Source: Flavobacterium sp. (GTDB lineage Bacteria; Bacteroidota; Bacteroidia; Flavobacteriales; Flavobacteriaceae). From it: a stretch of 64,000 nt of DNA. The stretch lies in NCBI RefSeq assembly GCF_003497625.1, contig NZ_DNNO01000031.1; one strand, given 5' to 3'. The number at the start of each line of letters is the position of its first letter. The first letter of the stretch is position 1. The notes beneath the pieces were generated by a model, which was not told where the DNA came from, ran no database searches, and was given only the letters and a program-made list of their open reading frames with translations. This document shows, in pieces, positions 19,672 through 36,380 of this stretch. The position numbers and the translations under genes are program-made.

Positions 19672-22600
19672 ATGAAGAAATTATTTTATTTAGTAGTATG
19701 TATCCCTGTTCTTGCTTTAGGACAAAGTACAGACCAAAATTACGTTAAAACCACAGCATACAAAGAGCCTACCGCTTCATCGATAACTAATCCTGATATC
19801 AATCAGGCCAATGTTCAAGTGAGTTATTTTGATGGATTAGGAAGACCTATCCAACAAATTGCATACAAACAATCCAATACAGGAAAGGATATTGTAACGC
19901 ATATAGAATACGACCAGTTTGGCAGACAAACTAAAGATTATTTACCTTATGTAAGCAAAGGAGCATCATTAAATTATTTACCATTAGCACAAACCGATTT
20001 ATTAAATTTCTATGCTTCACCAAATACAACAAACACTGGAAATCCATATTTTGAAGCAACAGGAAATCCTTTTAGTGAGAAGCAATTGGATAATTCGCCA
20101 TTAAATAGAGTTCTTAAACAAGCAGCACCGGGTGATGTTTGGGGTTTACCTCAAACAACAGGTTTGTCTGATGACAGAAGTATCAAGTTTGACTACCAAA
20201 CAAACGTTGCAAATGAAGTCAAGTATTTTAAAGTAGTTTCATCATGGAATTCTTCAAAAGAGTTGTATGAACCTGCGATTGTTCAAACAGGAGATTATGC
20301 AGAGAATCAATTGTATAAAACAATAACAAAAGATGAAAATTGGGTTTCTGGAAAAAGCAACACTACAGAAGAATTCAAAGATAAAGAAGGTAAAGTGGTT
20401 TTAAAAAGAACCTATAATGATGTTTTTGTAGATGGTGTTCTAGTGGAATCTCAAGTAAAACACGATACCTATTATATCTATGATCAATACGGGAATCTTA
20501 CCTATGTAATTCCTCCATTAGCAGAAGGAATAGCTTCAGAAGAGAATTTGAATTATTTAGGTTACCAATACAAATACGATAGTAGAAATAGATTAGTAGA
20601 AAAGAAATTACCAGGTAAACAATGGGAATTTATTGTATATGATAAATTAGATAGACCAATTGCAACAGGACCAGCAAATAATCCTTATGGTGATGGTACG
20701 TTAGGTTGGATGATTACAGAATATGATGCTTTTGGTAGAATTACGCAAACGGGTTGGATAAAAATGACAGCAACTGAAGCCGAACGTAAGAACAATCAAA
20801 ATACAGTAAATTCAGGAGGTAATCCATTTACGTTGATACAAGATGATATTTTGACTAAAAACTATTACGATAATTATTCATTTGCAGAAGCTCCTAACAT
20901 GCCTCAAACTATTGAAGGACAAGTAGCAACAACTGCTACAAGAGGACTGCAAACAGGTTCTTGGGTTAGGGTTTTAGATAATCAAGGTAGTACAACAGCA
21001 GAAACTTCTTATACTTTGTATGATTTTAAATACCGACCTACAAGAACACGAACAACTAACTTTTTAGGAGGTTACACAGAGGTTGACAGTAAATTAGATT
21101 GGTCAGGAAAAGTAGAAAAAACCATTACCAAGCACAAATACGATAGTGCCACAGCCGTTTTAACCACAACGGAAACTTTTACCTACTCACCACAAGATAA
21201 ATTAGTTTTACATATACAAAAAATTAATCAGTCAGATGAACAACTTATTGCTAAAAATAGCTATGACGAATTAGGGCAACTTATCAAGAAAGAAGTTGGA
21301 GGAGTTGATATTACGGGTAATTTAGGCTTACAAACAGTAGATTATCAGTATAACATAAGAGGATGGTTAAAAGCAATAAACGACATTGAAACAGAGAATG
21401 ATTTGTTTGCCTTTAAAATTAATTATAATCAACCTGTCGATGCTACAGCACTTTACAATGGTAATATTTCTGAAACCTATTGGAAGACAGCATCGGATAA
21501 TATACTTAGATCATATCATTACAAATATGATGATTTAAATAGATTATTAGAAGGTAATTACAAGCGTGAAGGTGGTCAATATACTAATAGTTATCTAGAA
21601 AAATTATCATATGATAAAAATGGCAATATTTTAGATTTATTTAGAAACGGAGATAACGATGCGGTTGATTATGAATTTAATATTGATGATTTAAAATATT
21701 TTTATCATCCGCAGAAAGCAAATCAACTTATGAAAGTTACAGACCATAGTAACTCTCCTCAAGGTTTCAAAGATGATATTGTAGATGTAAATGATGTTGA
21801 AGACGATTACGAATATGATGATTTTGGTAATATGGTTGTTGATGCCAATAAGGACATTACTGATATTGATTACAATCATTTAAACTTGCCTACAAAAATA
21901 TATTTTGGAAATGGCACCTCTATTATTTACCTTTATAATGCGACAGGACAAAAAGTTAGAAAAGTGGTTCATTCAAATGACAATATTACAACTGATTATT
22001 TAGGTGGATTTCAATATCATAATAATAAATTGAAACATTTCCCTCATGCTGAAGGTTATGTAAATATTATAGATATTGTTGAGAACAAGTTTAAATACGT
22101 TTTTAATTACATGGATCATTTAGGGAATGTAAGGCTTTCATATTCGGATGCTAATGAGAATAATGTTGTTGAAGAAGATGAAATTTTAGAAGAAAACCAT
22201 TATTATCCTTTTGGGCTGAAACATACTGCCTACAACACGAATCATAGACAATATGTTTCTAATGAAGAGCTTAATGAAATTATTTTAGAACAAATGCCTA
22301 AGTTTGCAGGAGATGGGAGTTATAATTATAAATACAACGGAAAGGAATATCAAGACGAGCTGGGACTGAACATGTACGATTACGGAGCAAGGAATTACGA
22401 CCCTGCTTTAGGTAGATGGATGAACATTGACCCGCTGGCGGAACAAGGACGTAGATGGTCACCTTATAATTATGCGTTTAATAATCCTGTTTATTTTATT
22501 GACCCTGATGGGATGTGGCCGTGGCCTACATTGAAAGATGTTAAAAATTTTGTAAGTGCTACTGGTGATGGTATAGCGGGATTTTATAAAGACGTAAAAA

Positions 22601-23214
22601 ATACTGTTGTGAATGCTCCATCTAGGCTTGCAAAAGGTTATTCTTCACCAAAAGAGGCATTAAAATTAGCTGTTGAAACACATCCATTAAATATGGTTGT
22701 TGGACAATTTAAAAATACTGTTGATGGAGCTAAGAGTTTATCAAAAGGGGATTATAAAAGTGCAGGAAAAGCATATGGTAATCAATTAGGAGCAGGAAGT
22801 TTAGCCCTAGCTACGATGGGTACAGCCAAAAGTTCACCAAAAACAAGTGTGAAAAAAGTTGCTGCTGAAACCCCAGTTTCTAATCCAGTTCCATCTACTT
22901 TGGCTAGAGTAATTCCAGCAGATGTGCAGGCAACTACATTAGGGGCGCAATCTGCTGAAAGAGTTTTTGTTACTACGGCTAGTGATATTTCTGGCTTAAA
23001 TGCCTCAGGTATAGCTAATAAATTAACAATCCCTGAGAGTCCAACTGGATTTCAAGTAATAGAGTTTCCAACTCCAAGTAATGGTATTGCTACACCAATT
23101 CAGTCAAATCTACCTGGATTTATAGGTGGGGGTAAAACAGCTGGAGGTGCAACAGAATTTACAATCCCAAATCAACCAATTCCACTAAATGCAACAAAAA
23201 AAATAGTTGAATAA
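19672..23214 (+). CDS. RHS/YD-repeat polymorphic toxin (Bacteroidota-type N-terminus, RHS core, variable C-terminal toxin domain)
   Basis: Many YD repeats (YDxxGR/N). RHS core end reads [39 protein letters not shown]...NNPVYFIDPDGM. A ~235-aa unrelated C-terminal tip follows. Confidence 0.9.
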   Translation: MKKLFYLVVCIPVLALGQSTDQNYVKTTAYKEPTASSITNPDINQANVQVSYFDGLGRPIQQIAYKQSNTGKDIVTHIEYDQFGRQTKDYLPYVSKGASLNYLPLAQTDLLNFYASPNTTNTGNPYFEATGNPFSEKQLDNSPLNRVLKQAAPGDVWGLPQTTGLSDDRSIKFDYQTNVANEVKYFKVVSSWNSSKELYEPAIVQTGDYAENQLYKTITKDENWVSGKSNTTEEFKDKEGKVVLKRTYNDVFVDGVLVESQVKHDTYYIYDQYGNLTYVIPPLAEGIASEENLNYLGYQYKYDSRNRLVEKKLPGKQWEFIVYDKLDRPIATGPANNPYGDGTLGWMITEYDAFGRITQTGWIKMTATEAERKNNQNTVNSGGNPFTLIQDDILTKNYYDNYSFAEAPNMPQTIEGQVATTATRGLQTGSWVRVLDNQGSTTAETSYTLYDFKYRPTRTRTTNFLGGYTEVDSKLDWSGKVEKTITKHKYDSATAVLTTTETFTYSPQDKLVLHIQKINQSDEQLIAKNSYDELGQLIKKEVGGVDITGNLGLQTVDYQYNIRGWLKAINDIETENDLFAFKINYNQPVDATALYNGNISETYWKTASDNILRSYHYKYDDLNRLLEGNYKREGGQYTNSYLEKLSYDKNGNILDLFRNGDNDAVDYEFNIDDLKYFYHPQKANQLMKVTDHSNSPQGFKDDIVDVNDVEDDYEYDDFGNMVVDANKDITDIDYNHLNLPTKIYFGNGTSIIYLYNATGQKVRKVVHSNDNITTDYLGGFQYHNNKLKHFPHAEGYVNIIDIVENKFKYVFNYMDHLGNVRLSYSDANENNVVEEDEILEENHYYPFGLKHTAYNTNHRQYVSNEELNEIILEQMPKFAGDGSYNYKYNGKEYQDELGLNMYDYGARNYDPALGRWMNIDPLAEQGRRWSPYNYAFNNPVYFIDPDGMWPWPTLKDVKNFVSATGDGIAGFYKDVKNTVVNAPSRLAKGYSSPKEALKLAVETHPLNMVVGQFKNTVDGAKSLSKGDYKSAGKAYGNQLGAGSLALATMGTAKSSPKTSVKKVAAETPVSNPVPSTLARVIPADVQATTLGAQSAERVFVTTASDISGLNASGIANKLTIPESPTGFQVIEFPTPSNGIATPIQSNLPGFIGGGKTAGGATEFTIPNQPIPLNATKKIVE
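22327..22443 (+). repeat. rhs core-end repeat, copy 1 (direct repeat of 32742..32858)
   Basis: Hand alignment shows ~13 mismatches in 117 nt, mostly at synonymous third-codon positions. Confidence 0.85.
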
Positions 23215-23504
23215 TGAAACTTATTGAAGAAAAAGAAAAAGAATTGACAGGTAACTGGATATTTAAAGACGGTAAGATAGTTGAAGATGAAACTTCTAAA
23301 AGAATAAAATTTTTAATAGACAATTTTCTTGTGAAAATTGCCGTATCACCTTCAGGCTGGGAAAAATTATTTCAAGACCCAAATGATTTAAGATTTTGGG
23401 AATTGACATATAATGATGGGGAATTTCATGGAGGAGGTGCTCCATCATTAAGGAATATTTCAAAAGAAATGGCAGTGAAAAATTATTCTTTAAATGTTGA
23501 CTAA
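23214..23504 (+). CDS. putative cognate immunity protein of the RHS toxin tip
   Basis: 96-aa ORF whose ATG overlaps the rhs stop (TAATG), suggesting translational coupling. It has no signal peptide. Conserved-looking W...FWE...GGGAP segment. Confidence 0.7.
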   Translation: MKLIEEKEKELTGNWIFKDGKIVEDETSKRIKFLIDNFLVKIAVSPSGWEKLFQDPNDLRFWELTYNDGEFHGGGAPSLRNISKEMAVKNYSLNVD

Positions 23505-23513
23505 CATTGAAAT

Positions 23514-24047
23514 GGTAATGTTTCAGATTAAGACTACAACCATTCAAAAATCCTAAATTAAAATAGGATTAGTTAACTAGTTCGCAAACAATTAAACGGC
23601 ATTGATGTATGATTCAGAAATGCCGTTTTTTTAATAGTAAAAACAAGAAATCCTAACCGTTAAAAGTTAGGATTCTTTATTATTTTATAAACGTCCGCTA
23701 GCACGTAATCCTTCTTTTATTACATGTATGTCGCTCCAAAAAAGCTCAAATCTATTTCGATTATAAACTTGAATTAAACCATTAATTCCTTCAGGTGTTA
23801 ATTTATCTTTGAAATAATTATTGGTCAAAATGTGATATTTGGTTGATATTAGTGTGGTATCTTCATTACTATTCTTGAAAAAGAAATTATATTTTTCTCT
23901 TAATTTTTCCTTTAACAAATCGTTGTCAGCTTGGTTTGAATCATCGATTAAAATTTCTTCAGGAACTTTATTTTCAACGGATGTTTGTTCTTCAGGTAGA
24001 TTTGGTTCTTTTACCTCATCAGGTTCGTTTTCGGGTTCGTTTAAGTT
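23514..24047 (+). repeat. ~534-bp direct repeat R, copy 1 (hairpin-rich spacer plus 3' part of the Rep-like gene)
   Basis: Aligns with 34074..34605 at roughly 90% identity by eye. It begins with an IS1-IRL-like 20-mer, ggtaatgtttcagattaaga. Confidence 0.85.
23594..23632 (+). terminator. rho-independent terminator of the rhs-immunity operon
   Basis: aaacggcatt / aatgccgttt stem followed by a T7 run. Confidence 0.75.
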
Positions 24048-24407
24048 CTCGTTAAATGCAGTTTTTGAATTATTTGTTTTTAGATACTCATTGAATTTAT
24101 CAATGTCGATTTTGATTTCATGCGTTGAAGTGTAGCCGTTTTCTCCCTTTTTATTTCCTAACTGTATGCTTGAAAAAAAATCGAATTTCTTTGAAGTTGA
24201 AATGGTTTTTCTTATACCGCTTTCTGTTAGTCCTAATTGGTCAGCAATGTATTTGTTTTTTGCTGTTAGCGTTTTGCCTTTTTCTTGCCAGCCAATAATG
24301 TAAGCAAAAAAGATTTTTTGGGTTGATGTGATTTCTTGTACCGAGATTCTTCTAAGCGAATCGTTTACTTTGGTAAATGTTTTTTGATTTTTTTCACTAG
24401 GTTTCAT
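23685..24407 (-). CDS. HTH-domain protein, candidate replication initiator (Rep-like) of the plasmid-like element
   Basis: 240 aa. N-terminal winged-helix-like segment (FFAYIIGWQEKGKTLTAKNKYIADQLGLTESGIRKTIS), acidic linker, and conserved C-terminal domain. Iterons lie directly upstream. The Rep function is inferred from context only. Confidence 0.6.
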   Translation of the reverse strand: MKPSEKNQKTFTKVNDSLRRISVQEITSTQKIFFAYIIGWQEKGKTLTAKNKYIADQLGLTESGIRKTISTSKKFDFFSSIQLGNKKGENGYTSTHEIKIDIDKFNEYLKTNNSKTAFNENLNEPENEPDEVKEPNLPEEQTSVENKVPEEILIDDSNQADNDLLKEKLREKYNFFFKNSNEDTTLISTKYHILTNNYFKDKLTPEGINGLIQVYNRNRFELFWSDIHVIKEGLRASGRL

Positions 24408-24661
24408 TTTTAATATTTGTATTTCCTAATTGTTATTCCCTGCTTTTTTACTTGGTTAGGAAAGCTGGGCAGTATGCCTACTGTATGAACCCCAGCACCC
24501 AAGACAATCAAAAGTTGATTATGCTTAAATTTAGTCCTAATTATTGAATAAGTCAATGATTTTGGACAACAAAATGGTGGTTGAGATGCGTTTTTTTTTT
24601 GTTTGACTAACTTACTCCAAAAAGTCTTTGCTGTCAAGTTGAAATGCATTTTTTTCTGAAT

Positions 24662-24792
24662 TGTCCCACAGGACAGATGTAGTAATTTGGTTTGTCCTAG
24701 AGTACAATATCATGTCCCACAGGACAAAAGTAGTGTCCCCTAGCACAACATAGTTGTCCCACAGCACGGTTAAAAACGTCCTACAGTAACCC
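24662..24792. repeat. array of six iteron-like 14-mers (consensus TGTCCYAnAGnACA)
   Basis: Copies start at 24662, 24693, 24713, 24734, 24755 and 24777, with spacings of 31, 20, 21, 21 and 22 bp. Two copies are the perfect palindrome TGTCCCACAGGACA. A very AT-rich stretch follows (24795-24880). Confidence 0.8.
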
Positions 24793-24889
24793 TATATTAG
24801 ATTATATATTAAATTAATAATAAGAATATATATAATACTATTTATTAGGGAAATTAAGTTTTTTGTTGAATTTATCTTTTAATAAAAAT

Positions 24890-25135
24890 CGATTTCAACT
24901 TGAAATGAAGATTTACTTCAACTTAAATTTATTTATTGAAAAGAAACAATATCAACTAAAGGAAATGGCGGAGCCAACTCATATTCAACTTAAAATAAGT
25001 CCATACATCAACTAAAAGAAATTGGCGAAGCCAACATATATTCAACTTGAAATAAGTCTTCATATCAACTCAAAAGAAGTACTCATTTCAACCACCCGAA
25101 GGGAATCCATCTCAACCCCTACGGGAAGTAGACCC
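24890..25135. repeat. tandem 56-57-bp repeats with nine (A/T)TCAAC cores
   Basis: Units start at 24951, 25007 and 25064, with degenerate copies on either side. TCAAC cores lie at 24895, 24918, 24952, 24985, 25008, 25042, 25065, 25088 and 25112, with alternating ~23/34-bp spacing. No ORF covers the region. Confidence 0.8.
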
Positions 25136-25418
25136 AGCCCGCTAGCCGTTTTAAAGCATCTATTGACATCCCATTTTCACTGTCACTAGCACCTAAAAGC
25201 TAAAGGTTTGAAATACACAAATCCAACCCCTCGTATCTAAAAACAGCCCTTCCCCCCTGTAAACGAATTCAAAAATTGGGAAATGTTCATTTTCAGTTAT
25301 CCGCCTCATATTAGAATTTTCCACTCACATATTAATAGGCGAATAAATGCGTTCAAAAATTCTGAGTTAAAATTTTCAGAATTCAAAATTTGAAGATATT
25401 TATTAGTAAACGGAAAAC

Positions 25419-25562
25419 ATGAAAATAGTAATTACACTCAAGCAGTTAAAAGGGGTGCTTCGCACACAACCAATAAAACCAGTTGTTTTTAAAGTTGCTA
25501 ATTTCAACGATAAAGAAATGTTGGAATTATCAAAAATGTTTCAAGAAAAAGAACGATGTTAA
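25419..25562 (+). CDS. possible 47-aa ORF (hypothetical)
   Basis: MKIVITLKQLKGVLRTQPIKPVVFKVANFNDKEMLELSKMFQEKERC. Its stop lies inside a hairpin (aacgatgt taa cacatcgtt) followed by a T-run. It is below the length cut-off of the ORF track, and coding status is uncertain. Confidence 0.25.
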   Translation: MKIVITLKQLKGVLRTQPIKPVVFKVANFNDKEMLELSKMFQEKERC

Positions 25563-25790
25563 CACATCGTTTTTTTTATGCCTAAAAATGACCCAAAATC
25601 TCGCAAGCCCAGGAAAACCAGGATTTTTCTAGGATATGTAAAAAAAGACCTGGACATTTGTTTCACTATTGTAAAGAAGTGAAATAAAAGCAACAAACCC
25701 AGTAAAATCAAGGGTTTACAAAGGTTGGTAAAACGACCACTTTCACTAAGGGTAGAAAACTAATAAAAGTGAAACTAAAATCGTAAAATT

Positions 25791-26366
25791 ATGGCATTAA
25801 AAGGACAAAAAACAACGAGTGATTTTTTAGAGTGGGAAAAGATGCAATCACTAGTTTTAAAATTGGAGCGTGATGGTGAATTGAAATTTGCGCTATTGAT
25901 TGCGACAGGTTCATACATTGGACTTAGAATTTCAGATTTACTTCAATTACGTTGGAATCAGGTTTTAGACCAAGATTATTTTACCATCACCGAGAAGAAA
26001 ACCAAGAAAACACGTAAAGTAACTATTAACCCTGAGTTGAAAACAATTCTTAATCGTTTGTTTATTCAACTAGGAGCCAAAGAAAATGATTTAATGTTCG
26101 TGAACCGCTTCGGGGAAAAACCATTTTCAATCCAATACGTGAATAGTAAGCTAAAAGAGATATTTACCACTTACAAGATAAAAGGACAATATTCGAGCCA
26201 CTTTATGAGAAAGACACTAGGTCGCAGAATATGGGAAGTTAACAAGTACTCTGACCAAGCGTTGTTGTTATTATCTCAATTGTTCAATCATGCGAGCGTA
26301 TCAACAACCAAAATTTACTTAGGAATTCGTGAAACGGAGATTAGTAATCTGTATTTGAGTGTCTAA
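25791..26366 (+). CDS. short tyrosine recombinase (catalytic domain only, 191 aa)
   Basis: Catalytic motifs GLRISDL (Arg I), HFMRKT (HxxR) and NHASVSTTKIYLG (His...Tyr). It lacks the usual N-terminal core-binding domain. Confidence 0.8.
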   Translation: MALKGQKTTSDFLEWEKMQSLVLKLERDGELKFALLIATGSYIGLRISDLLQLRWNQVLDQDYFTITEKKTKKTRKVTINPELKTILNRLFIQLGAKENDLMFVNRFGEKPFSIQYVNSKLKEIFTTYKIKGQYSSHFMRKTLGRRIWEVNKYSDQALLLLSQLFNHASVSTTKIYLGIRETEISNLYLSV

Positions 26367-26854
26367 ACGGCACTCAATTTTCACAAAAACAGGTTGGAAT
26401 TATAGTAAATTGTTTAATTTGAATACGTTACAGGTGTTTTTAGAAAATAAGCCAAAAAATTATTCATAAAAATTCAGGTCATTTTTGTTAATGTTTTGCA
26501 GAATATTCAAAAAAAATCAAGAGTAACCAAATTAAACAATTCAGCAACCGTAACTAGTTGATTTTCAAGGCTAATTGAAATTTGTCTAAAAACAGACTGA
26601 GAATTCAATAATTGTAAGAATTTACCCGTTTTTTAGTCTCGTTTCGCTACCATATCTTTGTAAAAGGAAATCCAAGAAAAACGAAACATCTAACCTAACT
26701 ACTAGCTATAGTGGGGCTTAAGTTTTAAAAAAGTTGATTGTAGAGCTAAACATTTCAACTAGAAAAATCATAATTAATTTATCAAATTACCAATTCGGTG
26801 AAATACCCGAAGCAGGATTCTTATGTCCAAAATTTTACGTCAAACCTTTAAAAA

Positions 26855-27427
26855 TTGAAGCTTATGGAAACACTCGATACCTTGTTTAAATCCTTTGAAA
26901 TGGGACTTAGAATGCCAAAGGCGGTAAAGCCAAAAGAATACCTTAAAAGTTCAGGGTTGGATTATACCGATTTGCGTATTGGTTTTAATTCGGGTCAGTT
27001 TCACCACAACGTAAGCCAAGAGTTAAAAGACAATTACGAGGCGTTGGGAGTAATTCAAAAAAGCAACGCTGGAGTAAGTAAAGAAGGAATGACCGCTTAC
27101 ACCGTGTTTGGTAGATATAGTGTAGTGTTTCCGTTGATGAATCAAAAAAACGAGGTTGTTAATCTTTTTGCGATACGTTTTGATATGGAAACCCAACAAG
27201 CGGAATATCTCAACAGCGAGGGCATTTATCCAAACTATCCGCCACCATTAACCAAACGATTGTACATAGTTCCAACGGTTTTAGATTGTGCCAGCCTTTT
27301 ACAAAGCAAGATACTTGAAAATAGGGATTCGGTCATGGCATTACACAACGCAGAACTATTGCCACAGCATTTGGAAGCTATAAAAACATTACACGAATTG
27401 GAAGAAATCATCATCATTAAAAATTAA
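26855..27427 (+). CDS. hypothetical protein, possibly a degenerate Toprim/primase-like module
   Basis: The ORF track starts at TTG 26855, and the first ATG is at 26864. The segment RLYIVPTVLDCASLLQ...VMALHNAELLPQHLEAIK has a Toprim-like strand-helix layout, but Pro replaces the Toprim Glu. It ends 5 nt before the next gene. Confidence 0.5.
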   Translation: MKLMETLDTLFKSFEMGLRMPKAVKPKEYLKSSGLDYTDLRIGFNSGQFHHNVSQELKDNYEALGVIQKSNAGVSKEGMTAYTVFGRYSVVFPLMNQKNEVVNLFAIRFDMETQQAEYLNSEGIYPNYPPPLTKRLYIVPTVLDCASLLQSKILENRDSVMALHNAELLPQHLEAIKTLHELEEIIIIKN

Positions 27428-27432
27428 GCACT

Positions 27433-29103
27433 ATGGAAAATATCAAATCAACATTACAAGCATTACGCCCTGAGTTACCAATTACCATGATTGGGTTGCC
27501 TGATGGTGAAAACTTAAATACCATGTGGCTTAATTATGGTGCGGATGGAATCCTACAATTAATCAGCGATTCAAAAGATGAAAATCAAAATAATTTTTTA
27601 GATATAATCAACGATTTTAAAATTGGATTCAAGGGTAAAACAGGTGAATTCTTTGTAATCGGTCAGTTGCCAATGGATTTGGGAAATCTAAGAGTGACGC
27701 TCCAAATTGTAAACCACCACAATCAGAAGAAAATCCGATTGAAAATTGATTTGTACGACTTTGTGAGCGTTCAGAACCAATGCAGGGAACTATCCGAGAA
27801 ACAAGGTTTTGACATCAATCTACTAGAAGCGGATTTGATTCAGTTAACTGACCTACTAGAAGAGTACAGAGAATCGCTTTTTGATGCTGAAATTAACCCG
27901 ATAACGGACAAATATTCAGAAAACGAGCTAACACCCCAAGCCAATGAAAAAGCGGTGCAATTCCTATCAAATAAACGCCTACTAGAAAACATCGATAAAC
28001 TATTGGAACAATCGGGAATCGTTGGTGAGGAAGAAAACAGAAAACTACTTTTCATTTTAGCCAGCAGTTACAAAATGCCGTATTTGTTGCATGCGCTGAT
28101 TCAAGGAACATCGGGCGAAGGTAAAAGCCATTTGCTTAACTCAATTGCAGAATGTATGCCACAGGAAGACGTAATGAATCTAACTCGAATCACAAGTAAA
28201 TCATTGTACCATTACAGGGAAAAAGAGTTAATGAATAAACTGATTTTGATTCAGGATTTTGATGGACTAGACGAAGAAGCCCAATTTGCTTTTAGAGAAA
28301 TGCAATCCGCTAAATTTCTGAGTAGTTCAACGGTGGTTAAAGATATGTTTGGACAAACACGAGGCAAGATGAAACAAGTACAAGCCCATTTTTCAAGTCT
28401 GACCGCCACCACTAAAGCTGAGGTGTATTATGATAACATGAGCCGTTCGGTGGTCTTGGGTGTGGATGAATCACAGGAGCAAACCCTAAGAATCATAAAG
28501 CAACAAAACATGAAAATCGCAGGAATTAGTAGCTCAGAATCGGAGCAACAAGCCAAACAATTACTAAGAAATGCAATGCGGGTGCTAAAGAGTTATGAAG
28601 TGGTGAATCCGTATGCGGATAAACTTATGTTGCCTCTTGAAGCTAAGATGTTAAGACGATTAAACAGCCAGTTTCAAAACTTTGTTTCTCAAATTACAAT
28701 CTTGCACCAGTTCCAACGTAAAACGGATGACAAAGGCAGGCTAATCGCTACTAAAGAAGACATTCAAAAAGCAGTTGAAATATTTTTCAGCAGTATTGTA
28801 ATCAAAGTGGATGAACTCGATAAAAGCACAAGGCAATTCTTTGAACGATTGAAAGGCTATGTGAAAAGCCAACCAAACGGAACAACGCACCGTTTCTGCA
28901 TTCGAGAAGTAAGACAAGATTTGAACATGAGTAAAACATCTGCATTCAAGTATTTTCAAACCTTACAGGAATTGGAATACATTCAAGTGGTGGAAGGTGC
29001 GGTGAACAAAGGATTCAAATACACCATTTCATACTGGGACAATATGGAAAAGCTAAAAGCCAAAATCAAAGAGGACTTAAACAAACAGCTGTTCGCTTTT
29101 TAG
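27433..29103 (+). CDS. P-loop NTPase, primase-associated helicase-like replication protein
   Basis: Walker A GTSGEGKSH and Walker B LILIQDFDG, with a winged-helix-like C-terminus. It is comparable to primase/helicase proteins of Bacteroidota mobilisable elements; that comparison is a family-level inference. Confidence 0.65.
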   Translation: MENIKSTLQALRPELPITMIGLPDGENLNTMWLNYGADGILQLISDSKDENQNNFLDIINDFKIGFKGKTGEFFVIGQLPMDLGNLRVTLQIVNHHNQKKIRLKIDLYDFVSVQNQCRELSEKQGFDINLLEADLIQLTDLLEEYRESLFDAEINPITDKYSENELTPQANEKAVQFLSNKRLLENIDKLLEQSGIVGEEENRKLLFILASSYKMPYLLHALIQGTSGEGKSHLLNSIAECMPQEDVMNLTRITSKSLYHYREKELMNKLILIQDFDGLDEEAQFAFREMQSAKFLSSSTVVKDMFGQTRGKMKQVQAHFSSLTATTKAEVYYDNMSRSVVLGVDESQEQTLRIIKQQNMKIAGISSSESEQQAKQLLRNAMRVLKSYEVVNPYADKLMLPLEAKMLRRLNSQFQNFVSQITILHQFQRKTDDKGRLIATKEDIQKAVEIFFSSIVIKVDELDKSTRQFFERLKGYVKSQPNGTTHRFCIREVRQDLNMSKTSAFKYFQTLQELEYIQVVEGAVNKGFKYTISYWDNMEKLKAKIKEDLNKQLFAF

Positions 29104-29226
29104 AAACGCAAAAAAGAACACGTCAAGCCCAGTAAATACAGCCTATATAATGCTAGTGTTCCTCGTTTTCAAAAGTGCGCCTATAGAACAATTTTCAAAT
29201 GATGTTTTTAACCAAAAGAAATTAAG

Positions 29227-30144
29227 ATGAAAAAAACGATACAAACACCAGCATTTACAAACCTTTACAACGAATTTGAAAGCTTCGTTAGAGTTAGAAA
29301 CTACAAACAAGGCAAAAGCAAAATGTATCAAAGTGTGGTATCGGAATTTTTATCATGGTTGGAACAAAACGGAATCACCAAAATCAAAGAGGTTAGCTCT
29401 GAAATCTCAATCCAATATTTTGAGTATTTAATCACAAGACCCAAACTAAGAGCCGAAGGGACACTTTCTGAAAAGTCCATCAAGTTTCATTTGTTCGTAT
29501 TGGGATTATTTGTGTTAAACCTTTTAGAAACCAATCAAATTGAAAAAGCGTTTTACATTCCGAGCTACAGCGGAGCAAACGAAAAACCAAGAAATATCAT
29601 TTCGGTTGCTGAGGTTCAAATGTTGTACATGAGCGCACAAAACGAGCTTGAAAAGGCATTGTTGTCGGTGGCGTATGGTTGTGGTCTTAGAAGGTCTGAA
29701 ATTCACTCTTTGGATGTAAAAGATGTGCAACTATCCATCGGAATGTTAATTGTTAGAAAAGGTAAAAATTCCAAACGCAGAGAAGTTCCCATGAGTGATA
29801 ATGTAATAAGCCATTTGAGAAAATACATCACCGAAGAACGCTACGAGCGATTAGAAGGAAAACCCCAATTGGAAGATGCTTTTTTCATAAACAACAAAGG
29901 CAAGCGAATGAGTGGGGAGCATCTGAATGATACGCTAAAGAATCTGATTGAAAGCACCAATAATTACGAGCTGATTCAAAAGGAAATAACGCTTCATTGT
30001 CTCAGACATAGTATTGCGTTCCACTTAGCAGAAAACAACGCAGGAATCGACTTTATACGCAGGTTTTTGGGTCATTCACAAATCAACACCACGTATTTGT
30101 ATGCGATTAAGAACAAAAAACGAAAACCAACAACAACCTTTTAA
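29227..30144 (+). CDS. tyrosine recombinase/integrase (XerC/D-like), first of a back-to-back pair
   Basis: Catalytic motifs GCGLRRSEI (Arg I), HCLRHSIA (HxxR) and GHSQINTTYLYA (His...Tyr). Confidence 0.9.
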   Translation: MKKTIQTPAFTNLYNEFESFVRVRNYKQGKSKMYQSVVSEFLSWLEQNGITKIKEVSSEISIQYFEYLITRPKLRAEGTLSEKSIKFHLFVLGLFVLNLLETNQIEKAFYIPSYSGANEKPRNIISVAEVQMLYMSAQNELEKALLSVAYGCGLRRSEIHSLDVKDVQLSIGMLIVRKGKNSKRREVPMSDNVISHLRKYITEERYERLEGKPQLEDAFFINNKGKRMSGEHLNDTLKNLIESTNNYELIQKEITLHCLRHSIAFHLAENNAGIDFIRRFLGHSQINTTYLYAIKNKKRKPTTTF

Positions 30145-30147
30145 CTT

Positions 30148-31023
30148 TTGCCTATGAAAACACCAACGTTAGAAATGTTTTTAAACGAAATGTTGACCAC
30201 CAAAACCGCTGAAAGCTATTTGTACACCATCAATCATTTTATTAAAACCAATCCAAAGGCAAAGCGTTACAAGTTTAAAGAAGTGGTGCAATACATGGAA
30301 CTAGTGAACCAAAAACAATCCAATCCACAATACAGAATCCGAATCCTATCCGCTATAAAAAAGTATTACGATTATTTGATAATTACAGGGCAACGAAGCG
30401 ACCACCCATGTAAGAAACTAAACATCAAAAGAAACAGTAATCAAGCTATTCAAACGCAGGATTTATTTTCTAGTGAGGAATTGGAGCTACTACTCCAAAG
30501 GGAAAACCGCTATTGGTTTTTAGAGTTACGCAATCAAGTTCTTTTAGGATTACTGATTTATCAAGGATTATCCAGTGAGGAAATAATTAGGCTCGAATTA
30601 AAAAATATCGATTTGGATAATGGAACAATCTACGTTAAAGCTTCAAAGAATCTCAACCGAAGAACCCTAGAACTCAAACCAAAACAAATCCTACCACTAT
30701 CAAAATACATTGATGAGGTTAGACCTAAAATGCTAATGATGAAAACCGATGTGCTGGTGCTAAACAAGTTGGGAAAACCTTTTACCGTTGATGGTGTTGG
30801 GTCGATAATTGAACCGTTAAAGTGTTTATTCCCCGATAGAAAACTCAATCCGCAAACTATCCGCATGAGTGTTATTTGTAATTGGTTAAACGAACGTAAA
30901 TTGACATTGGAGCAAACGCAAGAACTCGCAGGGCATAAATGGATAGGCACAACGGAGAAATACATCAAATCGGATGCTAAAAACGAACGGGAATTGATAA
31001 ACAGGTATTTTCCTAAGTTGTAA
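30148..31023 (+). CDS. tyrosine recombinase/integrase, second of the pair, with Ser at the Arg I position
   Basis: It starts 3 nt after the stop of the previous gene. GLSSEEI occupies the usual GLRxSE position, and IRMSV and GHKWIGTTEKYIKS (His...Tyr) are retained. Confidence 0.85.
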   Translation: MPMKTPTLEMFLNEMLTTKTAESYLYTINHFIKTNPKAKRYKFKEVVQYMELVNQKQSNPQYRIRILSAIKKYYDYLIITGQRSDHPCKKLNIKRNSNQAIQTQDLFSSEELELLLQRENRYWFLELRNQVLLGLLIYQGLSSEEIIRLELKNIDLDNGTIYVKASKNLNRRTLELKPKQILPLSKYIDEVRPKMLMMKTDVLVLNKLGKPFTVDGVGSIIEPLKCLFPDRKLNPQTIRMSVICNWLNERKLTLEQTQELAGHKWIGTTEKYIKSDAKNERELINRYFPKL

Positions 31024-31233
31024 AATTTACGGAATATTGTAACTGGTATGATAATTGTTGTACTAATAATCAGAAAGTTAAAAAGTGATTAACGTATTAT
31101 TTAGAACGTATATAAATAAAGAACTTTAACTAAATTTTAGTGCACGCATGCATACAAGTAATAGAACAAATTAATACTTTTGTTCCATAATTAAACAGTG
31201 CTTAAACACTAAGTAATTAAAAAACAACTACCT

Positions 31234-31401
31234 ATGAAAATTAGTAAACTATACGGCAAGAAAGCAAAAGTTGCTTCTAAGGCGGTAAAAGTTAGTAATT
31301 CAACTTCAAAAATCGCTGTGGTAAAACATGAATTCCGTGTTATATCTGCTGACGAAATTAACAATAACAGGTCTAGTGCTTATCAGTATTTAGCATTTTA
31401 A
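31234..31401 (+). CDS. possible 55-aa basic protein (hypothetical)
   Basis: MKISKLYGKKAKVASKAVKV...SAYQYLAF. It is preceded by a -7-like box, TACTTTTG (31175-31182), and ends 25 nt before the next ORF. Not in the ORF track because it is shorter than 60 aa. Confidence 0.3.
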   Translation: MKISKLYGKKAKVASKAVKVSNSTSKIAVVKHEFRVISADEINNNRSSAYQYLAF

Positions 31402-31426
31402 TCATTGATTTATATCGTATATTTTA

Positions 31427-32014
31427 ATGATGGCTTTGACACGTTATGACTTCTATAAAATTCAAGGCAATCGGAAAAATAAAGACAAAGTAGAGCTATA
31501 TAGGTTTAAGAACGAATTCAAAGACATTTATATAGTAGAAATTTTTCATTACGATTTCAATGTTTACGCTATCAAGTTTTATTTAAAGAATCATTCCGAT
31601 TCAAAAAAGCGTTATAATATTTGTTACAAAGCTGAGTTTAAAAAAAATTTAGGTTTTGAAACTGGTAATTCAAATTTCATCAAAGTACTGAATACAATTC
31701 TTTCGATAGTTATTGAAATTAGAAAAAAAGACGAATTAGCATCATTCGGATTTATGGGTGCTCCAAAGGAAAGTGAAGCAGACCCCGAAGTAAATTCATC
31801 AAATATCAATTTAGATTGTACTGTAGCTGATACCAAACGATATAGAGTTTACCATCTTTACACAAGAAAGTACTTCAATCCTAGTGATTTTGAATATATT
31901 GATAGTAAGAGTTCTAGCATATTGTTACTTAGAAACAACAAAAACAAAGAAACGTTAACTAAAGACGTTGCGGAAAATTATATTATAAACACAATTATTC
32001 CGAGTTTAACATAA
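31427..32014 (+). CDS. hypothetical protein (195 aa), element cargo of unknown function
   Basis: Clean ORF followed by two strong terminators. I cannot recognise any motif. Confidence 0.6.
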   Translation: MMALTRYDFYKIQGNRKNKDKVELYRFKNEFKDIYIVEIFHYDFNVYAIKFYLKNHSDSKKRYNICYKAEFKKNLGFETGNSNFIKVLNTILSIVIEIRKKDELASFGFMGAPKESEADPEVNSSNINLDCTVADTKRYRVYHLYTRKYFNPSDFEYIDSKSSSILLLRNNKNKETLTKDVAENYIINTIIPSLT

Positions 32015-32022
32015 ATGAATTT

Positions 32023-32048
32023 AAGCCCTCAAATCGAGGGCTTTTTTT
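32023..32048 (+). terminator. rho-independent terminator
   Basis: aagccctc aaatc gagggctt followed by a T7 run. Confidence 0.8.
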
Positions 32049-32096
32049 ATGCCTTAATCTGGACAGATTTTTTTTCGTCCGATTTGTCCACTCATC

Positions 32097-32121
32097 AACC
32101 CAGTGTTTACTGGGTTTTTTT
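32097..32121 (+). terminator. second rho-independent terminator
   Basis: aacccagt gttt actgggtt followed by a T7 run. Iteron-like half-sites GGACA (32061) and TGTCCA (32085) lie just upstream. Confidence 0.7.
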
Positions 32122-32464
32122 ATTATGTTGTAATAATTAAAATTTAATAAACTCTTTATTTATAAGTCTTAACAGAGTTTTTCAATTGAATTTTGATGTC
32201 CTTTTTTTTAATCTCCACAATTTTCAATTTTGAATTATTAATAATGGTTATTTCTTAAATTAAAAAACAATGAATTTACTTAACACCACAATTACGAACC
32301 ATTGATTTTACTGGATTTTAAACTGTCCTATTTTTTTAAAACCCCAATAAATAACTTCGTTGCGTTAAAAAGGAACAAAGTTACACAATGACGTAAAAAG
32401 ATATTTTTTAGTTTGTAAACTAATTTGAAAAAGTAGATATAATGTTAAAGTAATAAATAATGAT

Positions 32465-32641
32465 ATGAGTAATTTAATAATAGTTTTGACCTTTGTGCTG
32501 GTTCTGCTAGTTTTGTTTGCGAGCTTACCCCCTAAAAGAGCCTATGATGCTGTAAATTGTTTTAAAATTTTAGCAGGAGCGTTTTCAATTAATAAATTGT
32601 GTGAAGCTTTAATTGAATATTTTAGGAACAATAAAAAATAG
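32465..32641 (+). CDS. possible 58-aa membrane peptide (hypothetical)
   Basis: MSNLIIVLTFVLVLLVLFASLPPKRAY... has one TM helix. It lies ~100 nt upstream of the rhs core stub. Below the ORF-track cut-off and speculative. Confidence 0.2.
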   Translation: MSNLIIVLTFVLVLLVLFASLPPKRAYDAVNCFKILAGAFSINKLCEALIEYFRNNKK

Positions 32642-32741
32642 TTTCTGTTTTTTATTGAAAATCCTTACATTTGAATCGCTATGATTTAATGAAAAAAGTA
32701 CGTTCTTAATCCATTAGAGCAGTTTCACAAAGGCGTATAAG

Positions 32742-32858
32742 TATAAATACAACGGAAAGGAATATCAAGATGAGTTAGGGCTTAACATGTACGATTATGG
32801 AGCAAGGAATTATGACCCTGCACTAGGTAGATGGATGAATATTGACCCGTTGGCGGAG
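32742..32858 (+). repeat. rhs core-end repeat, copy 2
   Basis: See 22327..22443. Confidence 0.85.
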
Positions 32859-33650
32859 AAATATTACTCATTGTCTTCATATAATTACACATCTAACAAT
32901 CCTATTAGATTTATAGACCCTAATGGAGAAGATATTTACATAATGCTCTATACAAGCGGTAATGACCATGGAGATAGAATGTTCAAAGCGGCAGCTGAAA
33001 CTAGGAAAAAGAACATTGAAGAAGGAAAAGGTTTTGACCCCAAAAAGGATATTGTCTTGATGTTGGAAGTTACTGATTTAGGTAAGTTGAAAGATATGAT
33101 TGAGGGTGCAATAGATGAGAACAGTGAAAAGTATGGTGAAACACAGGAGGTAGGGATGTGGTCTCATGCTGGTTTAGATGGTCCAATAGGTACTGAAGAG
33201 ACTTCTGAAAATCAATTAGGTGGAGTTTCAACACAAATGACTTTACAAGGTTGGGGAAATATTGATTTTAACTGGAAGAATAATGGGAATGGTACTAATC
33301 TTTCTTTTTATGGATGCAATACTGGTAATTCAGAATATAGAGGTGATTCTTTTGCGACAAATATATCAGGATTAGACAATTATAAAAATGTAAATGTTTC
33401 GGGTCAAACAACTTCAGCCTACCCTTCACTTTTTACTAATAAACGTGTTACAACTATTGCTAGAAATGGAAATTTATGGGGAGCGTGGACATTAGGAGGA
33501 GATACATACATGGTAGGTGGAAACAAAGGTCAAGGATATCAATCTACATCACCGTCAATAAAAGAAAATTATCCTTCTGCGAATCCTATGCAAGTTAGTA
33601 AGAATGGAGCAATCACTAAAACAATTTATCAACCAGGGACTAAATTCTAA
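32742..33650 (+). pseudogene. orphan (displaced) rhs module: core-end stub plus alternative C-terminal toxin tip CT2
   Basis: The in-frame sequence reads [42 protein letters not shown]...FIDPNGE followed by a new ~245-aa tip. The frame is closed by TAG at ~32713, so there is no rhs body. Only the internal ATG at 32787 could initiate translation. Confidence 0.85.
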
Positions 33651-33656
33651 TTAGTT

Positions 33657-34064
33657 ATGAAAAAAACAAATAAATTATTTTTATTACTTTTTGTGTTTTT
33701 CTTTAGTTGTGGAAAAAAAAATAGTTTAGAGCTAAACTTTTCTGAACAACTTAAGGATGTAGATTTTAAAATTGAAATGAGAGCATTAGGTAGTAATATA
33801 CCTAAAAAAGTAATTTATGACGGAAGTAAAAAATACGAGATACCATTTGAATATGGTGAGAATGAATGGTATTTTAGCTACAAGGATAGTGTCTATGCTT
33901 ACTTCAGGCATATAAAGACAAATAGAAATGATGGGCATAATTATAATTATAATTTTATAAAAGAAGGTGATAGAATTAAAGTTGAGATTATTATTTTAGG
34001 TGTAAGTAAAGTAAATAGAAGTGTATATTTTTCAACTAATAAAATAGACAGTTTTACTCGATAA
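33657..34064 (+). CDS. putative immunity lipoprotein for CT2
   Basis: It starts 7 nt after the CT2 stop. The lipoprotein signal is MKKTNKLFLLLFVFFFSCGKK. Confidence 0.65.
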   Translation: MKKTNKLFLLLFVFFFSCGKKNSLELNFSEQLKDVDFKIEMRALGSNIPKKVIYDGSKKYEIPFEYGENEWYFSYKDSVYAYFRHIKTNRNDGHNYNYNFIKEGDRIKVEIIILGVSKVNRSVYFSTNKIDSFTR

Positions 34065-34152
34065 GCTGGATTTGCTAATGTATCAGATTTGTGATACAAC
34101 CATTCATAAATCTTAATTAAAACAGGATTAGTTAACTAGTTCGCAAACAATT

Positions 34153-34191
34153 AAACGGCATTGATGTATGATTCAGAAATGCCGTTTTTTT
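34153..34191 (+). terminator. rho-independent terminator (copy of 23594..23632)
   Basis: Same aaacggcatt / aatgccgttt stem followed by a T-run. Confidence 0.7.
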
Positions 34192-34242
34192 AATAGCAAA
34201 AACAAGAAATCCTAACCGTTAAAAGTTAGGATTCTTTTTGTT

Positions 34243-34605
34243 TTATATACGTCCGCTGGCACGTAATCCTTTTTTTATTTCATGTATGTCATTCCAAAAA
34301 ATTTCAAAGTTATTTCTATTATATGCTTGAATTAAAGTATTAATTCCATCGGGCGGAAATTTATCCTTGAAATAATTGTTGGTTAAAATGTGATACTTAG
34401 TTGATATTAGTGTGGTATCTTCATTACTATTCTTGAAAAAGAAATTATATTTTTCTCTTAATTTTTCCTTTAACAAATCATTGTCGGCTTGGTTTGAATC
34501 ATCGATTAAAATTTCTTCAGGAACTTTATTTTCAACTGTTGTTTGTTCTTCAGGTTGATTTGGTTCTTCTACCTCATCAGGTTCGTTTTCGGGTTCATTT
34601 AAGTT
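34243..34605 (-). pseudogene. 5'-truncated second copy of the Rep-like HTH gene
   Basis: It encodes NLNEPENEPDEVEEPNQPEEQTTVENKVPEEILIDDSNQADNDLLKEKLREKYNFFFKN...LRASGRI, which is ~85% identical to the C-terminal half of the 23685..24407 product. The N-terminal half has been replaced by the IS. Confidence 0.85.
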
Positions 34606-35463
34606 GGTAATGTTTCAGATTTAGTGATGAGCACTTTTTTGATGTTTAACAAATTGATAATCAACAAAAATTAAAAATAATTGTAAAAAAGATGAGCTAC
34701 ATAGTTCATCTTTTTTTATGTTTAAAGCTCTTAAATCTAAGAAAATGATAAAAAATGAAACCTCGTGTGTCAGATTTAGTGATAATAAAATTTGCCCAAG
34801 TTGTAGTTCAAATCATGTTATCAAAAACGGTTTTACAGCAAATAAAAAGCAACAGTTTATTTGTAAATCATGTAAAAATAGATTTATAGATTTTTATACT
34901 TATAAAGCCTATAATCATTGGGTAGATAAAAGAATTGTTCAATTTACAAAAGAAGGATTGGGTATACGAAGCACAGCAAGAATTTTAAAAATATCGACAA
35001 CTACCTTATTGAAAAGAATAATTGCAATTGCTAAGAAAATCCCTAGCAAACCTATTTTTAAACACAAAACCTATGAAGTTGACGAGATCAGAACGTTTAT
35101 AAAAAACAAAGAAAAACCAATTTGGATTGTCTATGCCTTGGAAAGAAAAACTAAACAAGTTGTAAATTTTAGCATTGGCAGAAGAACTAAAAGAACATTG
35201 CAATATGTAACTAATACGTTATTGTTGTCCAATCCTAAAACAATTTATACAGATAAGCTAGTGCATTATAAGTCATTACTAAATAATGTTGTACACAATA
35301 CAAAGCCTTTTGGTACAAATCACATAGAAAGAAAAAACCTTTCATTAAGGACTCATCTCAAAAGACTTAATAGGAAAACTATTTGCTTTTCAAGAAGTTT
35401 TATATTGTTGCAATGTGTTTTGAGGATTTATTTTTGGGGATAGAAATTTACTAGTTATTCACC
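34606..35463 (+). mobile_element. IS1-family insertion sequence (left end clear, right end tentative)
   Basis: The left end GGTAATGTTTCAGATTTAGTGATG resembles the E. coli IS1 IR (GGTGATGCTGCCAACTTACTGATTTAGTG). It carries a single fused InsAB-like ORF. The right end is only weakly inverted (GGGTGAATAAC read from 35464). No target-site duplication is visible. Confidence 0.7.
34718..35443 (+). CDS. IS1-family transposase (fused InsA-InsB type)
   Basis: N-terminal zinc finger CPSC...CKSC, HTH segment GLGIRSTARILKISTTTL, and C-terminal NHIERKNLSLRTHLKRLNRKTICFSRS matching the IS1 InsB [26 protein letters not shown]. The start may instead be ATG 34745. Confidence 0.85.
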   Translation: MFKALKSKKMIKNETSCVRFSDNKICPSCSSNHVIKNGFTANKKQQFICKSCKNRFIDFYTYKAYNHWVDKRIVQFTKEGLGIRSTARILKISTTTLLKRIIAIAKKIPSKPIFKHKTYEVDEIRTFIKNKEKPIWIVYALERKTKQVVNFSIGRRTKRTLQYVTNTLLLSNPKTIYTDKLVHYKSLLNNVVHNTKPFGTNHIERKNLSLRTHLKRLNRKTICFSRSFILLQCVLRIYFWG

Positions 35464-35996: not shown

Positions 35997-36380
35997 AGTG
36001 TAATAAATAGTTAATTTAATATCAAAATAAATGCCATTATTTCAATTTATTTTTAACTCTTAAGTTTTCTACAATCAATAATTCCTCATAAATTGTGTTC
36101 GATTTTTCACTTGTTATCTGTACTAAATGAGACTTATCAGGATTTTCTTGGTAAGTCTTTTTTATTTTTTATTTATAAGTGTCTGAAAAACAATTAGTTA
36201 ACCCAAATAAAACCGCTGTTTTTGAGGTTAGATATTCTTTGTTTTTAAGTGAATATTGTAAGCCTTCAGGAAATAGTAATTTTTGTAATACTCTCTTTTG
36301 GTTGTATTCTAGGTTTTTGTAGAATTCAGGAGGGTTCACAGCGATTTTAGTAAAATACTTTATGGCTTTTTCTTGGTTAG

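Follow-up and report, generated by a model that had tools for sequence, protein, structure and literature searches.

The window analysed here is the whole of a 64,000-nucleotide (nt) stretch of contig NZ_DNNO01000031.1 of Flavobacterium sp. (assembly GCF_003497625.1), with positions counted from its first letter. It holds an rhs locus at which two pairs of repeats, A and B, lie collinearly and in direct orientation and bracket a unit of 10,415 bp; this unit, a candidate carrier of Rhs toxin tips, is the subject of the present work.

Organization of the rhs locus

Repeat A (22321-22442 versus 32736-32857, found with a repeat finder and blastn) covers 122 nt that are 90.2% identical without gaps at a spacing of 10,415, and its copies A1 and A2 share an exact run of 29 nt. 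Comparison of the translations showed that both copies encode the same 39-aa peptide of the Rhs core end, and therefore all nucleotide differences inside that peptide are synonymous. Repeat B (23513-24047 versus 34073-34605, blastn) covers 536 nt, 91.6% identical with 4 gaps at a spacing of about 10,560, with a fainter similarity already visible from 23502 and 34062. Both copies of B share a bidirectional, terminator-like hairpin (23649-23674 and 34208-34233), and they also include the 3' half of a minus-strand gene of 240 aa. An earlier reading of this DNA, hereafter the original prediction, had placed A at 22327-22443 and 32742-32858 (about 89% identical, differences mostly synonymous) and B at 23514-24047 and 34074-34605 (about 530 bp, with the terminator hairpins and the 3' half of a Rep-like gene); the pairwise alignment now confirms both pairs, their collinearity and their positions, within the borders given above.

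From left to right, the locus consists of an rhs body and core, an Ntox10 tip, an Imm27 gene, a Rep-like gene, iteron-like repeats, a short recombinase gene, split primase-like genes, two tandem genes for Xer-like tyrosine recombinases and a 195-aa cargo open reading frame (ORF). On the 3' side of the unit follow a displaced core stub with a second tip and a second immunity gene, and then an older backbone remnant, B2, truncated by IS1. The rhs gene (19672-23214, plus strand), presumed to be expressed, encodes a DUF6443 N-terminus (PF20041), RHS repeats (PF05593), the Rhs-associated core (TIGR03696, residues 882-948) and an Ntox10 tip (PF15520, E 1.2e-47), tip 1 or CT1, that begins at about 22443. 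Repeat A1 (22321-22442, plus strand) is core-end coding sequence and is taken as attL; its left edge, which matches the stub start found in about 100 related junctions, holds the proposed crossover core TATAATTATAAATAC (22321-22335). Immunity gene 1 (23214-23504, plus strand; Imm27, PF15590, E 3.4e-18) is the cognate partner of the Ntox10 tip. RHS repeats with a core, a variable tip with its cognate immunity gene (Ntox10-Imm27) and a downstream orphan that keeps a 122-nt core fragment together identify this as an Rhs locus.

The conserved backbone starts precisely where repeat B starts, homology to F. cucumis running from 23509, so that B1 (23513-24047) forms its left end. The Rep-like gene (23685-24407, minus strand), predicted to encode a helix-turn-helix (HTH) protein of 240 aa, gave weak matches to PHROG replication initiators (E 7.6e-5 and 6e-4) and no match in Pfam or NCBIfam; the same slot holds an HTH regulator in relatives. 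Four direct repeats of about 34 nt, including a 57-nt tandem pair (24871-25074; repeat families D5 and D7), are iteron-like, are also repeated in the related locus L010, and represent a candidate origin or protein-binding array. The short tyrosine recombinase (25791-26366, plus strand; PF00589), 191 aa long and restricted to the catalytic domain, occurs in only a subset of Flavobacterium elements. The primase-like genes (26855-29103, plus strand) are split into a 190-aa DnaG_N-like ORF (26855-27427), which scores under the Pfam cutoff (22.5 versus 26 bits), and a gene for a 556-aa P-loop/PF27228 protein (27433-29103); in other lineages the pair is fused into a CHC2-toprim (DnaG-type) primase of 830-1036 aa. 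They are followed by a RecA-type Xer-like tyrosine recombinase of 305 aa (29227-30144, plus strand) with catalytic residues R160, K185, H262, R265, H288 and Y297, and by its conserved partner, a RecB-type recombinase of 291 aa (30148-31023, plus strand) in which Gln replaces Arg-I and Arg-II, His and Tyr are kept; we call these two proteins RecA and RecB. The cargo ORF (31427-32014, plus strand) is shared with the loci L009 and L016 only, has no family match in Pfam, NCBIfam or PHROG, and is followed by terminator-like hairpins (32023-32116). Within the backbone, the G+C content between 26800 and 31000 is 0.36-0.40, above the 0.27-0.34 of the flanks.

The right junction begins with the element-side arm of the attachment site (32671-32741, plus strand), which comprises TTTGAATCGCT (32671-32681), ACGTTCTTAA (32700-32709) and TATAAG (32736-32741). 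Repeat A2 (32736-32857, plus strand), taken as attR, is the core stub that heads the displaced orphan (32736-33650, plus strand), in which 32787-33650 matches positions 30-75 of TIGR03696. Tip 2 (CT2) matched no known toxin family. It has 155 homologous tips across Bacteroidota, nearly all of them stubs of 230-450 aa and none full length among the 120 listed; a search for a full-length Rhs protein carrying tip 2, a possible pre-insertion state, likewise gave only short stubs among the matches listed. The putative immunity gene 2 (33657-34064, plus strand; 135 aa) is named for its position directly 3' of tip 2 and has no family match; its N-terminus, read by eye, looks like a lipoprotein signal. 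Repeat B2 (34073-34605) includes a Rep-like stub (34243-34476, minus strand), 88% identical to the 240-aa Rep-like protein, and its end at 34605 abuts exactly the left end (34606) of an IS1-family element (34606-35443, plus strand; transposase ORF 34718-35443, Pfam DDE_Tnp_IS1 and InsA), a boundary confirmed by a second copy of the IS1 left end at 14235.

The surroundings of the element look chromosomal, and no tRNA or other classical attachment site was found between 12 and 38 kb of the window. The gene content originally proposed (rhs, tips, recombinases, primase-like genes, core stub) agrees with our family searches, the Rep-like assignment being the weak one. Upstream, the rhs gene is preceded by genes for a protein with a type IX secretion system C-terminal sorting domain (14658-16286) and for a second RHS-repeat protein of 1,119 aa (16300-19659), the latter recurring in F. 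johnsoniae and F. cucumis.

A family of related elements

In a tblastn search of plasmids, the best relatives of the 556-aa protein were found in Aureibacter tunicatorum pAT2 and in an Aureispira plasmid. Both carry, in this order, a full-length RHS gene, an immunity gene, an HTH gene on the minus strand, a primase, two recombinases, an RHS stub, the same immunity gene and the backbone again, and then different orphan tips. The 556-aa protein has 1,329 homologues at E <= 1e-20, the form of 556-560 aa being native in Flavobacterium, and F. johnsoniae shows the same gene order with an IS1 gene on the right. We scanned genomes (one per species; 250 relatives, 75 loci taken for mapping) and metagenomes (at least 393 relatives, 79 loci taken for mapping) and searched all these loci with the window proteins and a small hidden Markov model of the core end. 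About 150 loci from the two collections have PriN, Pri556, RecA, RecB and the stub in this order on one strand, in Flavobacterium, Chryseobacterium, Chitinophaga, Cytophagales, Saprospirales (Saprospiraceae) and Bacteroidales. When only RecB genes with at least 5 kb of downstream sequence were considered, 78 of 84 were followed on the same strand and within 8 kb by an Rhs core stub (median distance 1.4 kb); on the upstream side, a full rhs core was present in 22 cases and another stub in 12. Homologous backbones thus nearly always lie at rhs loci with a core stub behind them, as the original prediction had anticipated. Stubs and recombinases share one strand almost throughout these loci.

Several contigs hold at least two elements in series; the serial stacking that had been read from the backbone remnant B2 on the 3' side of CT2-imm2 therefore has counterparts in the stacked and tandem elements of relatives. 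Exact tandem copies of whole elements are present in the finished plasmids of Aureibacter and Aureispira and in Chitinophaga and Cytophagales contigs (L003 13820-30171, L004 9582-25138, L076 6806-21695 and L081). Such copies could possibly arise by multimer integration, by repeated integration or by the assembly of circles into arrays.

The residues R160, K185, H262, R265, H288 and Y297 of RecA are each at least 99% conserved in 144 distinct sequences, and the best relatives of this protein in the PDB are XerC-like, XerA and XerD. In RecB, Gln140 occupies the Arg-I position in 100% of 133 distinct sequences and R240, H264 and Y273 are retained; no conserved His near Arg-II was seen among these 133 sequences, His-II having been assigned by reading the sequence. 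RecA thus has the full catalytic set of tyrosine recombinases, which RecB lacks; RecB is a conserved, non-canonical partner of RecA. Both proteins are far under the integron-integrase cutoffs (85 and 43 bits versus 265).

More distant relatives occur beyond Bacteroidota. In Leptospira, the HTH-primase-recombinase module adjoins ParA/ParB and Rep genes with no toxin gene nearby (L169, a L. weilii plasmid, and 12 other records). Because this module sits with ParAB/Rep and without toxins, the backbone looks like a plasmid replication and resolution module, which suggests an ancestral role in plasmid replication and multimer resolution. The proteobacterial relatives (L168, L170, L171, L172 and L173) are 25-30% identical and lie directly behind large polymorphic toxin genes, with orphan tips following; their backbone comprises an HTH gene, a CHC2/toprim primase and one XerC-like recombinase, and several carry VbhA or RelE/ParE-type toxin-antitoxin genes. 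The toxin gene upstream is an RHS gene in the Ralstonia solanacearum Po82 megaplasmid, where a 1.1-kb core repeat is 95% identical, an FG-GAP/TcdB/RHS gene in a Janthinobacterium plasmid, with a downstream array that includes Imm26, a cdiA gene with PT-VENN in a Salmonella plasmid, and a TpsA2 gene in a P. aeruginosa plasmid. In a Paraburkholderia plasmid it encodes a filamentous haemagglutinin, and the downstream stub, with a 95-nt repeat that has a sharp left edge, consists of the last part of DUF637 and an HYD1 ADP-ribosyltransferase. This handful of loci suggests a broader class of elements aimed at several kinds of polymorphic toxin.

Position of the crossover

Flavobacterium stubs all start at the same place, where non-coding element sequence ending in TATAAG is followed by TATAAGTACAAYGG (Y-K-Y-N-G); the equivalent in other lineages is a sequence ending in TATCGn followed by TAYGGnTTYAAYGG. 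The two exact copies of 8,169 bp in Aureibacter pAT2 provide three junctions, namely ggcTATCGTTATGGATTtaacgg at the rhs gene, aatTATGGGTATGGATTtaacgg in the middle and aatTATGGGTATGGATTccaagg at the last position. These share only TAT(C/G)G(T/G)TATGGATT (14 nt), and the core beyond the last junction is 40% identical; the exchange was therefore confined to TATGGATT. In Aureispira the stub measures 253 nt and is identical in the rhs and middle copies, while the last copy differs at 26 positions, the first of which is nucleotide 7. At least one recombination therefore occurred within the first 6 of 253 homologous nt, a position that would be unlikely for general recombination.

Other loci give a similar picture. 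The F. johnsoniae attL and attR share only TAAGTATAAGT (11 nt), the rest of the core being 55% identical, and in many other attL/attR pairs the cores are 36-70% identical with the longest shared run at the left edge. Wherever they can be mapped in relatives, crossovers fall in 6-8 nt at the stub start, the common cores measuring 6-14 nt in Aureibacter, Aureispira and F. johnsoniae. Moreover, 77 of 105 distinct junctions have the motif A(C/A)GTTCTT(T/A) at a distance of 25-110 nt on the upstream side of the stub, compared with 8% of random positions, and the window has its copy at 32700-32709. Dyad symmetry around the proposed core was inspected by eye with nothing convincing found, and we claim no binding-site model. 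Because the mapped crossovers lie within 6-8 nt and the divergence of many attL/attR cores is too great for homologous recombination, and in view of the junctions, the element-side motif and the conservation of RecA and RecB residues taken together, we propose that integration is most likely site-specific, in frame, and carried out at the first stub codons by the element's own heteromeric recombinase pair.

Mobility and possible circular forms

The window backbone (23509-31010) is 92% identical to that of F. cucumis DSM 18830, where the rhs body reaches only 74% identity, the flanks are different, and neither the tips nor the immunity genes are related to those of the window. Between the metagenomic loci L164 and L166, the rhs body and the backbone core are 92% identical, and the tip, the immunity gene and the cargo differ, the cargo being variable (Fic, toxin-antitoxin pairs, resolvase). 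Similar backbones with different tip-immunity cassettes, which the original prediction had led us to expect, are thus found in both comparisons, and at the level of sequence these demonstrate mobility of the backbone relative to both the rhs body and the tip. Another set of loci, L005-L008, had been taken for one backbone with different tips on the grounds that the called immunity genes differed in length; blastn showed them to be the same locus.

Terminal direct overlaps were detected in three whole metagenome contigs (L150, L153 and L157). L150, of 8,447 bp, has a 102-nt overlap and contains one each of a stub, a tip, an immunity-like gene, an HTH gene, an 859-aa primase gene, RecA and RecB. 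Its overlap lies upstream of the core and is therefore no artefact of a contig starting and ending in repeat A. A megablast of the backbone against 72,556 plasmids gave no DNA-level match, and no empty target site was found among the loci compared.

Fragments of IS1 recur around the cassettes. The IS1 left end and leader (34606-34717) is found again as a solo fragment at 14235-14345, just upstream of the rhs operon, a further IS1 fragment lies at 36378-36464, and the first 16-24 nt of the left end stand directly 3' of each immunity gene, at the start of B1 (23514-23529) and of B2 (34074-34097). The sequence GGTAATGTTTCAGATT at the start of B, at first suspected to mark cassette borders as an IS1 inverted repeat, proved to be the IS1 left end, and no inverted partner was found for it. 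In other Flavobacterium loci (L022 16521-21668, L024 13969-16524, L110 14960-18878 and L005 15014-16982) an IS1-family transposase gene lies between a tip-immunity cassette and the next stub, at a constant distance of 745 or 790 nt from the start of the IS1 match to the stub and with the motif ATGTTCTTAAA about 60 nt before the stub. These IS1-occupied slots could be minimal or decayed tip carriers.

Discussion

Our results lead us to interpret the region 22.3-32.7 kb, with a probability of roughly 0.7, as an integrated member of a family whose small integrative elements derive from plasmids and are specialized for the delivery of toxin tips to rhs genes. The free form would be a circle of about 10.4 kb that runs from the attachment site through the last 40 or so Rhs core codons, the Ntox10 tip and Imm27 to a backbone made of the Rep-like gene, the iteron-like repeats, the primase-like genes and the pair of Xer-like tyrosine recombinases. 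The recombinases would cross the element site with the matching start of the chromosomal rhs core end, which encodes Y-x-Y-K-Y-N-G-K-E (TATAAnTATAAATAC in the window), and the in-frame exchange would fuse the rhs body to the core end, tip and immunity gene of the element. The resident core end, tip 2 and immunity gene 2 would end up as a silent orphan behind the element, and the cell would stay immune to the old toxin. Repeated rounds would stack elements and orphans, and decay, in the window by IS1, would leave remnants such as B2. The single crossover of a circle of about 10.4 kb into the rhs core, as first proposed for this locus, is therefore supported and appears general across the family, with the refinement that the crossover is most likely site-specific. 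A free circular form, excision, autonomous replication, cell-to-cell transfer and the activity and specificity of the recombinases are features that we infer from sequence only.

Several observations weigh against this interpretation. The precise mapping of the crossover comes from two tandem arrays and from indirect patterns, and the left edge of the stub varies in some lineages (in Aureispira it lies 195 nt further upstream). RecB lacks Arg-I, and Xer-like plasmid pairs normally resolve multimers, so these recombinases might not be integrases. The contigs with terminal overlaps fit free circles or collapsed tandem arrays alike, and none of the 15 whole contigs of the genome collection was circular in the terminal-overlap test. 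A scan of IMG/VR gave no circular relative and indeed no relative at all; hence nothing points to a phage or satellite. The element showed no transfer genes, nor any conjugation or packaging genes. In the window itself, 122 nt of core at 90% identity, including an exact run of 29 nt, are similar enough for homologous recombination to have acted, and between L164 and L166 the identity falls gradually across the core with no sharp break at the proposed site, which makes the breakpoint test uninformative. Finally, the same map would result if CT2 had been the incoming tip and the crossover had taken place in repeat B, so that the window sequence alone fits either tip as the newcomer.

Some of these observations would be expected if the same element were inserted by host homologous recombination between its core stub and the rhs core, as in the circular-intermediate model of Jackson et al., with the recombinases serving only to resolve multimers. 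The similarity of the window cores and the lack of a sharp breakpoint between L164 and L166 are in line with such a route, as are the 1.1-kb core shared at 95% in the Ralstonia relative and the Leptospira plasmids, in which Xer-like recombinases and the same primase accompany ParAB/Rep without a toxin, a typical resolution module. We nevertheless regard host recombination as rather unlikely, since the Aureibacter junctions share 14 nt only next to a core at 40%, the Aureispira crossover fell at the very edge of its long homology, many attL/attR pairs are 36-60% identical with no run above 15-20 nt except at the left edge, and the element-side motif is conserved upstream of the stubs. For the window only, the incoming element may instead have carried CT2-imm2 and recombined through repeat B with a chromosomal backbone remnant 3' of rhs-CT1-imm1, CT1 being the older resident. 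Reasoning from the repeats, one crossover in B between a circle [B-backbone-A-CT2-imm2] and rhs-A-CT1-imm1-B'-IS1 would yield the observed map, and the long homology of B (536 nt, 91.6%) makes it feasible. This order of events seems improbable in the light of the relatives, whose tandem copies have the element's own tip fused to rhs and whose pattern puts new elements at the rhs junction; moreover, B2 ends at the IS1 insertion, as expected of an old, decaying remnant. Because the tip fused to rhs in the tandem arrays of relatives is the element's own, CT1-Imm27 is the likelier newcomer in the window, and CT2-imm2-B2 would remain from an earlier element that IS1 has since truncated.

There is a very slight chance that the module is immobile and belongs to the rhs loci as a domesticated recombinase system, which would work like a shufflon and bring silent tips into the expressed gene. 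Such a module would account for the constant location at polymorphic-toxin loci, for the absence of conjugation or packaging genes from the element and for orphan arrays that all have the same boundary sequence. It would not account for stubs that are direct and not inverted, for the conservation of replication-type genes, for a backbone 92% identical beside rhs bodies 74% identical, for exact tandem copies and circular-looking contigs, or for the variable cargo. Integration of a mobile element at a short site in the rhs core thus remains our preferred interpretation. Its wider form is that plasmid-derived integrative elements with one or two Xer-like recombinases, an HTH gene and a CHC2/toprim primase insert toxin-immunity cassettes in frame across phyla, with Rhs as the target in Bacteroidota, Ralstonia and Janthinobacterium and CdiA/TpsA in Salmonella, Pseudomonas and Paraburkholderia plasmids, and that they are the long-postulated episomal tip reservoir, the delivery vehicle and the source of orphan arrays. 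For this wider claim we see about even odds.

Comparison with known systems helps to place the element. Phages and islands that insert into tRNA genes use a tyrosine recombinase and an attachment site inside the gene, the replacement 3' end restores the same product, and direct repeats are formed by attL and attR. In our element the replacement encodes a different toxin and comes with an immunity gene, so integration would change the function of the gene; on this reading, the element is a tyrosine-recombinase integrative element that rewrites the C-terminus of its target instead of restoring it. The R64 shufflon recombinase Rci inverts resident segments between inverted sites, and integrons use IntI with attI and attC to capture promoterless whole-gene cassettes. 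Common to these systems and the one proposed here are site-specific tyrosine recombinases, which swap C-terminal coding segments in the shufflon and capture cassettes in the integron at a fixed site beside an expressed position. In contrast to both, a whole replicon-like element is inserted here in direct orientation within a reading frame: repeats A and B are direct and not inverted as shufflon sites are, and the cassettes, unlike those of integrons, are in-frame gene 3' ends with immunity genes.

C-terminal displacement was proposed by Jackson et al. 2009 (PMC2935791), in whose model episomal circles with a core and a tip recombine homologously, the old tip is shunted downstream, orphan arrays result and an episomal reservoir of tips is predicted; that model depended on a stable circular carrier and remarked on the lack of any known integrase alongside Rhs. 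Our interpretation has in common with it the circle with a core fragment and a tip, the single crossover into the rhs core and the displacement of the old tip. It differs in that the model invoked homologous recombination of non-replicating circles, whereas we describe a defined element with its own recombinase pair, replication-type genes and crossovers at a fixed short site. Orphan cdiA-CT/cdiI and rhs-CT/rhsI modules keep a piece of the conserved upstream coding sequence, according to Poole 2011 as cited in PMC4927057, and PMC3967940. Integrase and transposase genes are often present in orphan cdiA-CT arrays, as noted by Ruhe et al. 2016 (PMC4927057), who suggested site-specific recombination in general terms; neither a specific element nor a recombinase family, an attachment site or a conserved architecture was defined for these cdiA-CT and rhs-CT arrays. 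For Salmonella orphans, Koskiniemi 2014 (PMC3967940) demonstrated duplication and recombination of the recA type inside a single locus, as opposed to tips brought in on a mobile element. In Zhang et al. 2012, XerC/D genes are mentioned only in the vicinity of polyimmunity loci, and a 2026 paper on Ornithobacterium reports tips shared independently of RHS context and names no vehicle. The rAID clusters of Bacteroidales (Ross 2019), in the account given by bioRxiv 10.1101/2025.05.03.651265, combine a tyrosine recombinase with co-oriented arrays of orphan immunity genes and conserved intergenic motifs, their route of formation being unknown. As described there, they resemble our element in belonging to Bacteroidota and in the tyrosine recombinase beside orphan immunity genes, and are set apart from it as defensive clusters without a full-length effector, with one recombinase and with no primase reported. 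At the time of the original prediction, such an installing replicon was not known to have been described. Our literature search, made in full text and with most subscription journals outside its scope, found no description of such a defined element; the remark on integrase genes among orphan cdiA-CT arrays (PMC4927057) and the predicted episomal circle (PMC2935791) are precedents that qualify the claim.

To conclude, the way in which polymorphic toxins (Rhs, CdiA and others) gain new C-terminal warheads has been in question ever since the displacement model of 2009. If our interpretation is true, a widespread element with recombinases, a mappable in-gene attachment site and replication-type genes would be the missing carrier of that model, and the question would become experimentally testable. 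Three further features would find an explanation: orphan tips begin at the same codon, immunity genes accumulate, and the same tip is found on unrelated Rhs bodies. Moreover, the element would have an addiction-like hold on its host, because its loss would mean loss of immunity to the toxin of sibling cells. In practical terms, the recombinase pair and the short in-frame site may be used to find toxin-immunity pairs by synteny and to engineer C-terminal swaps.

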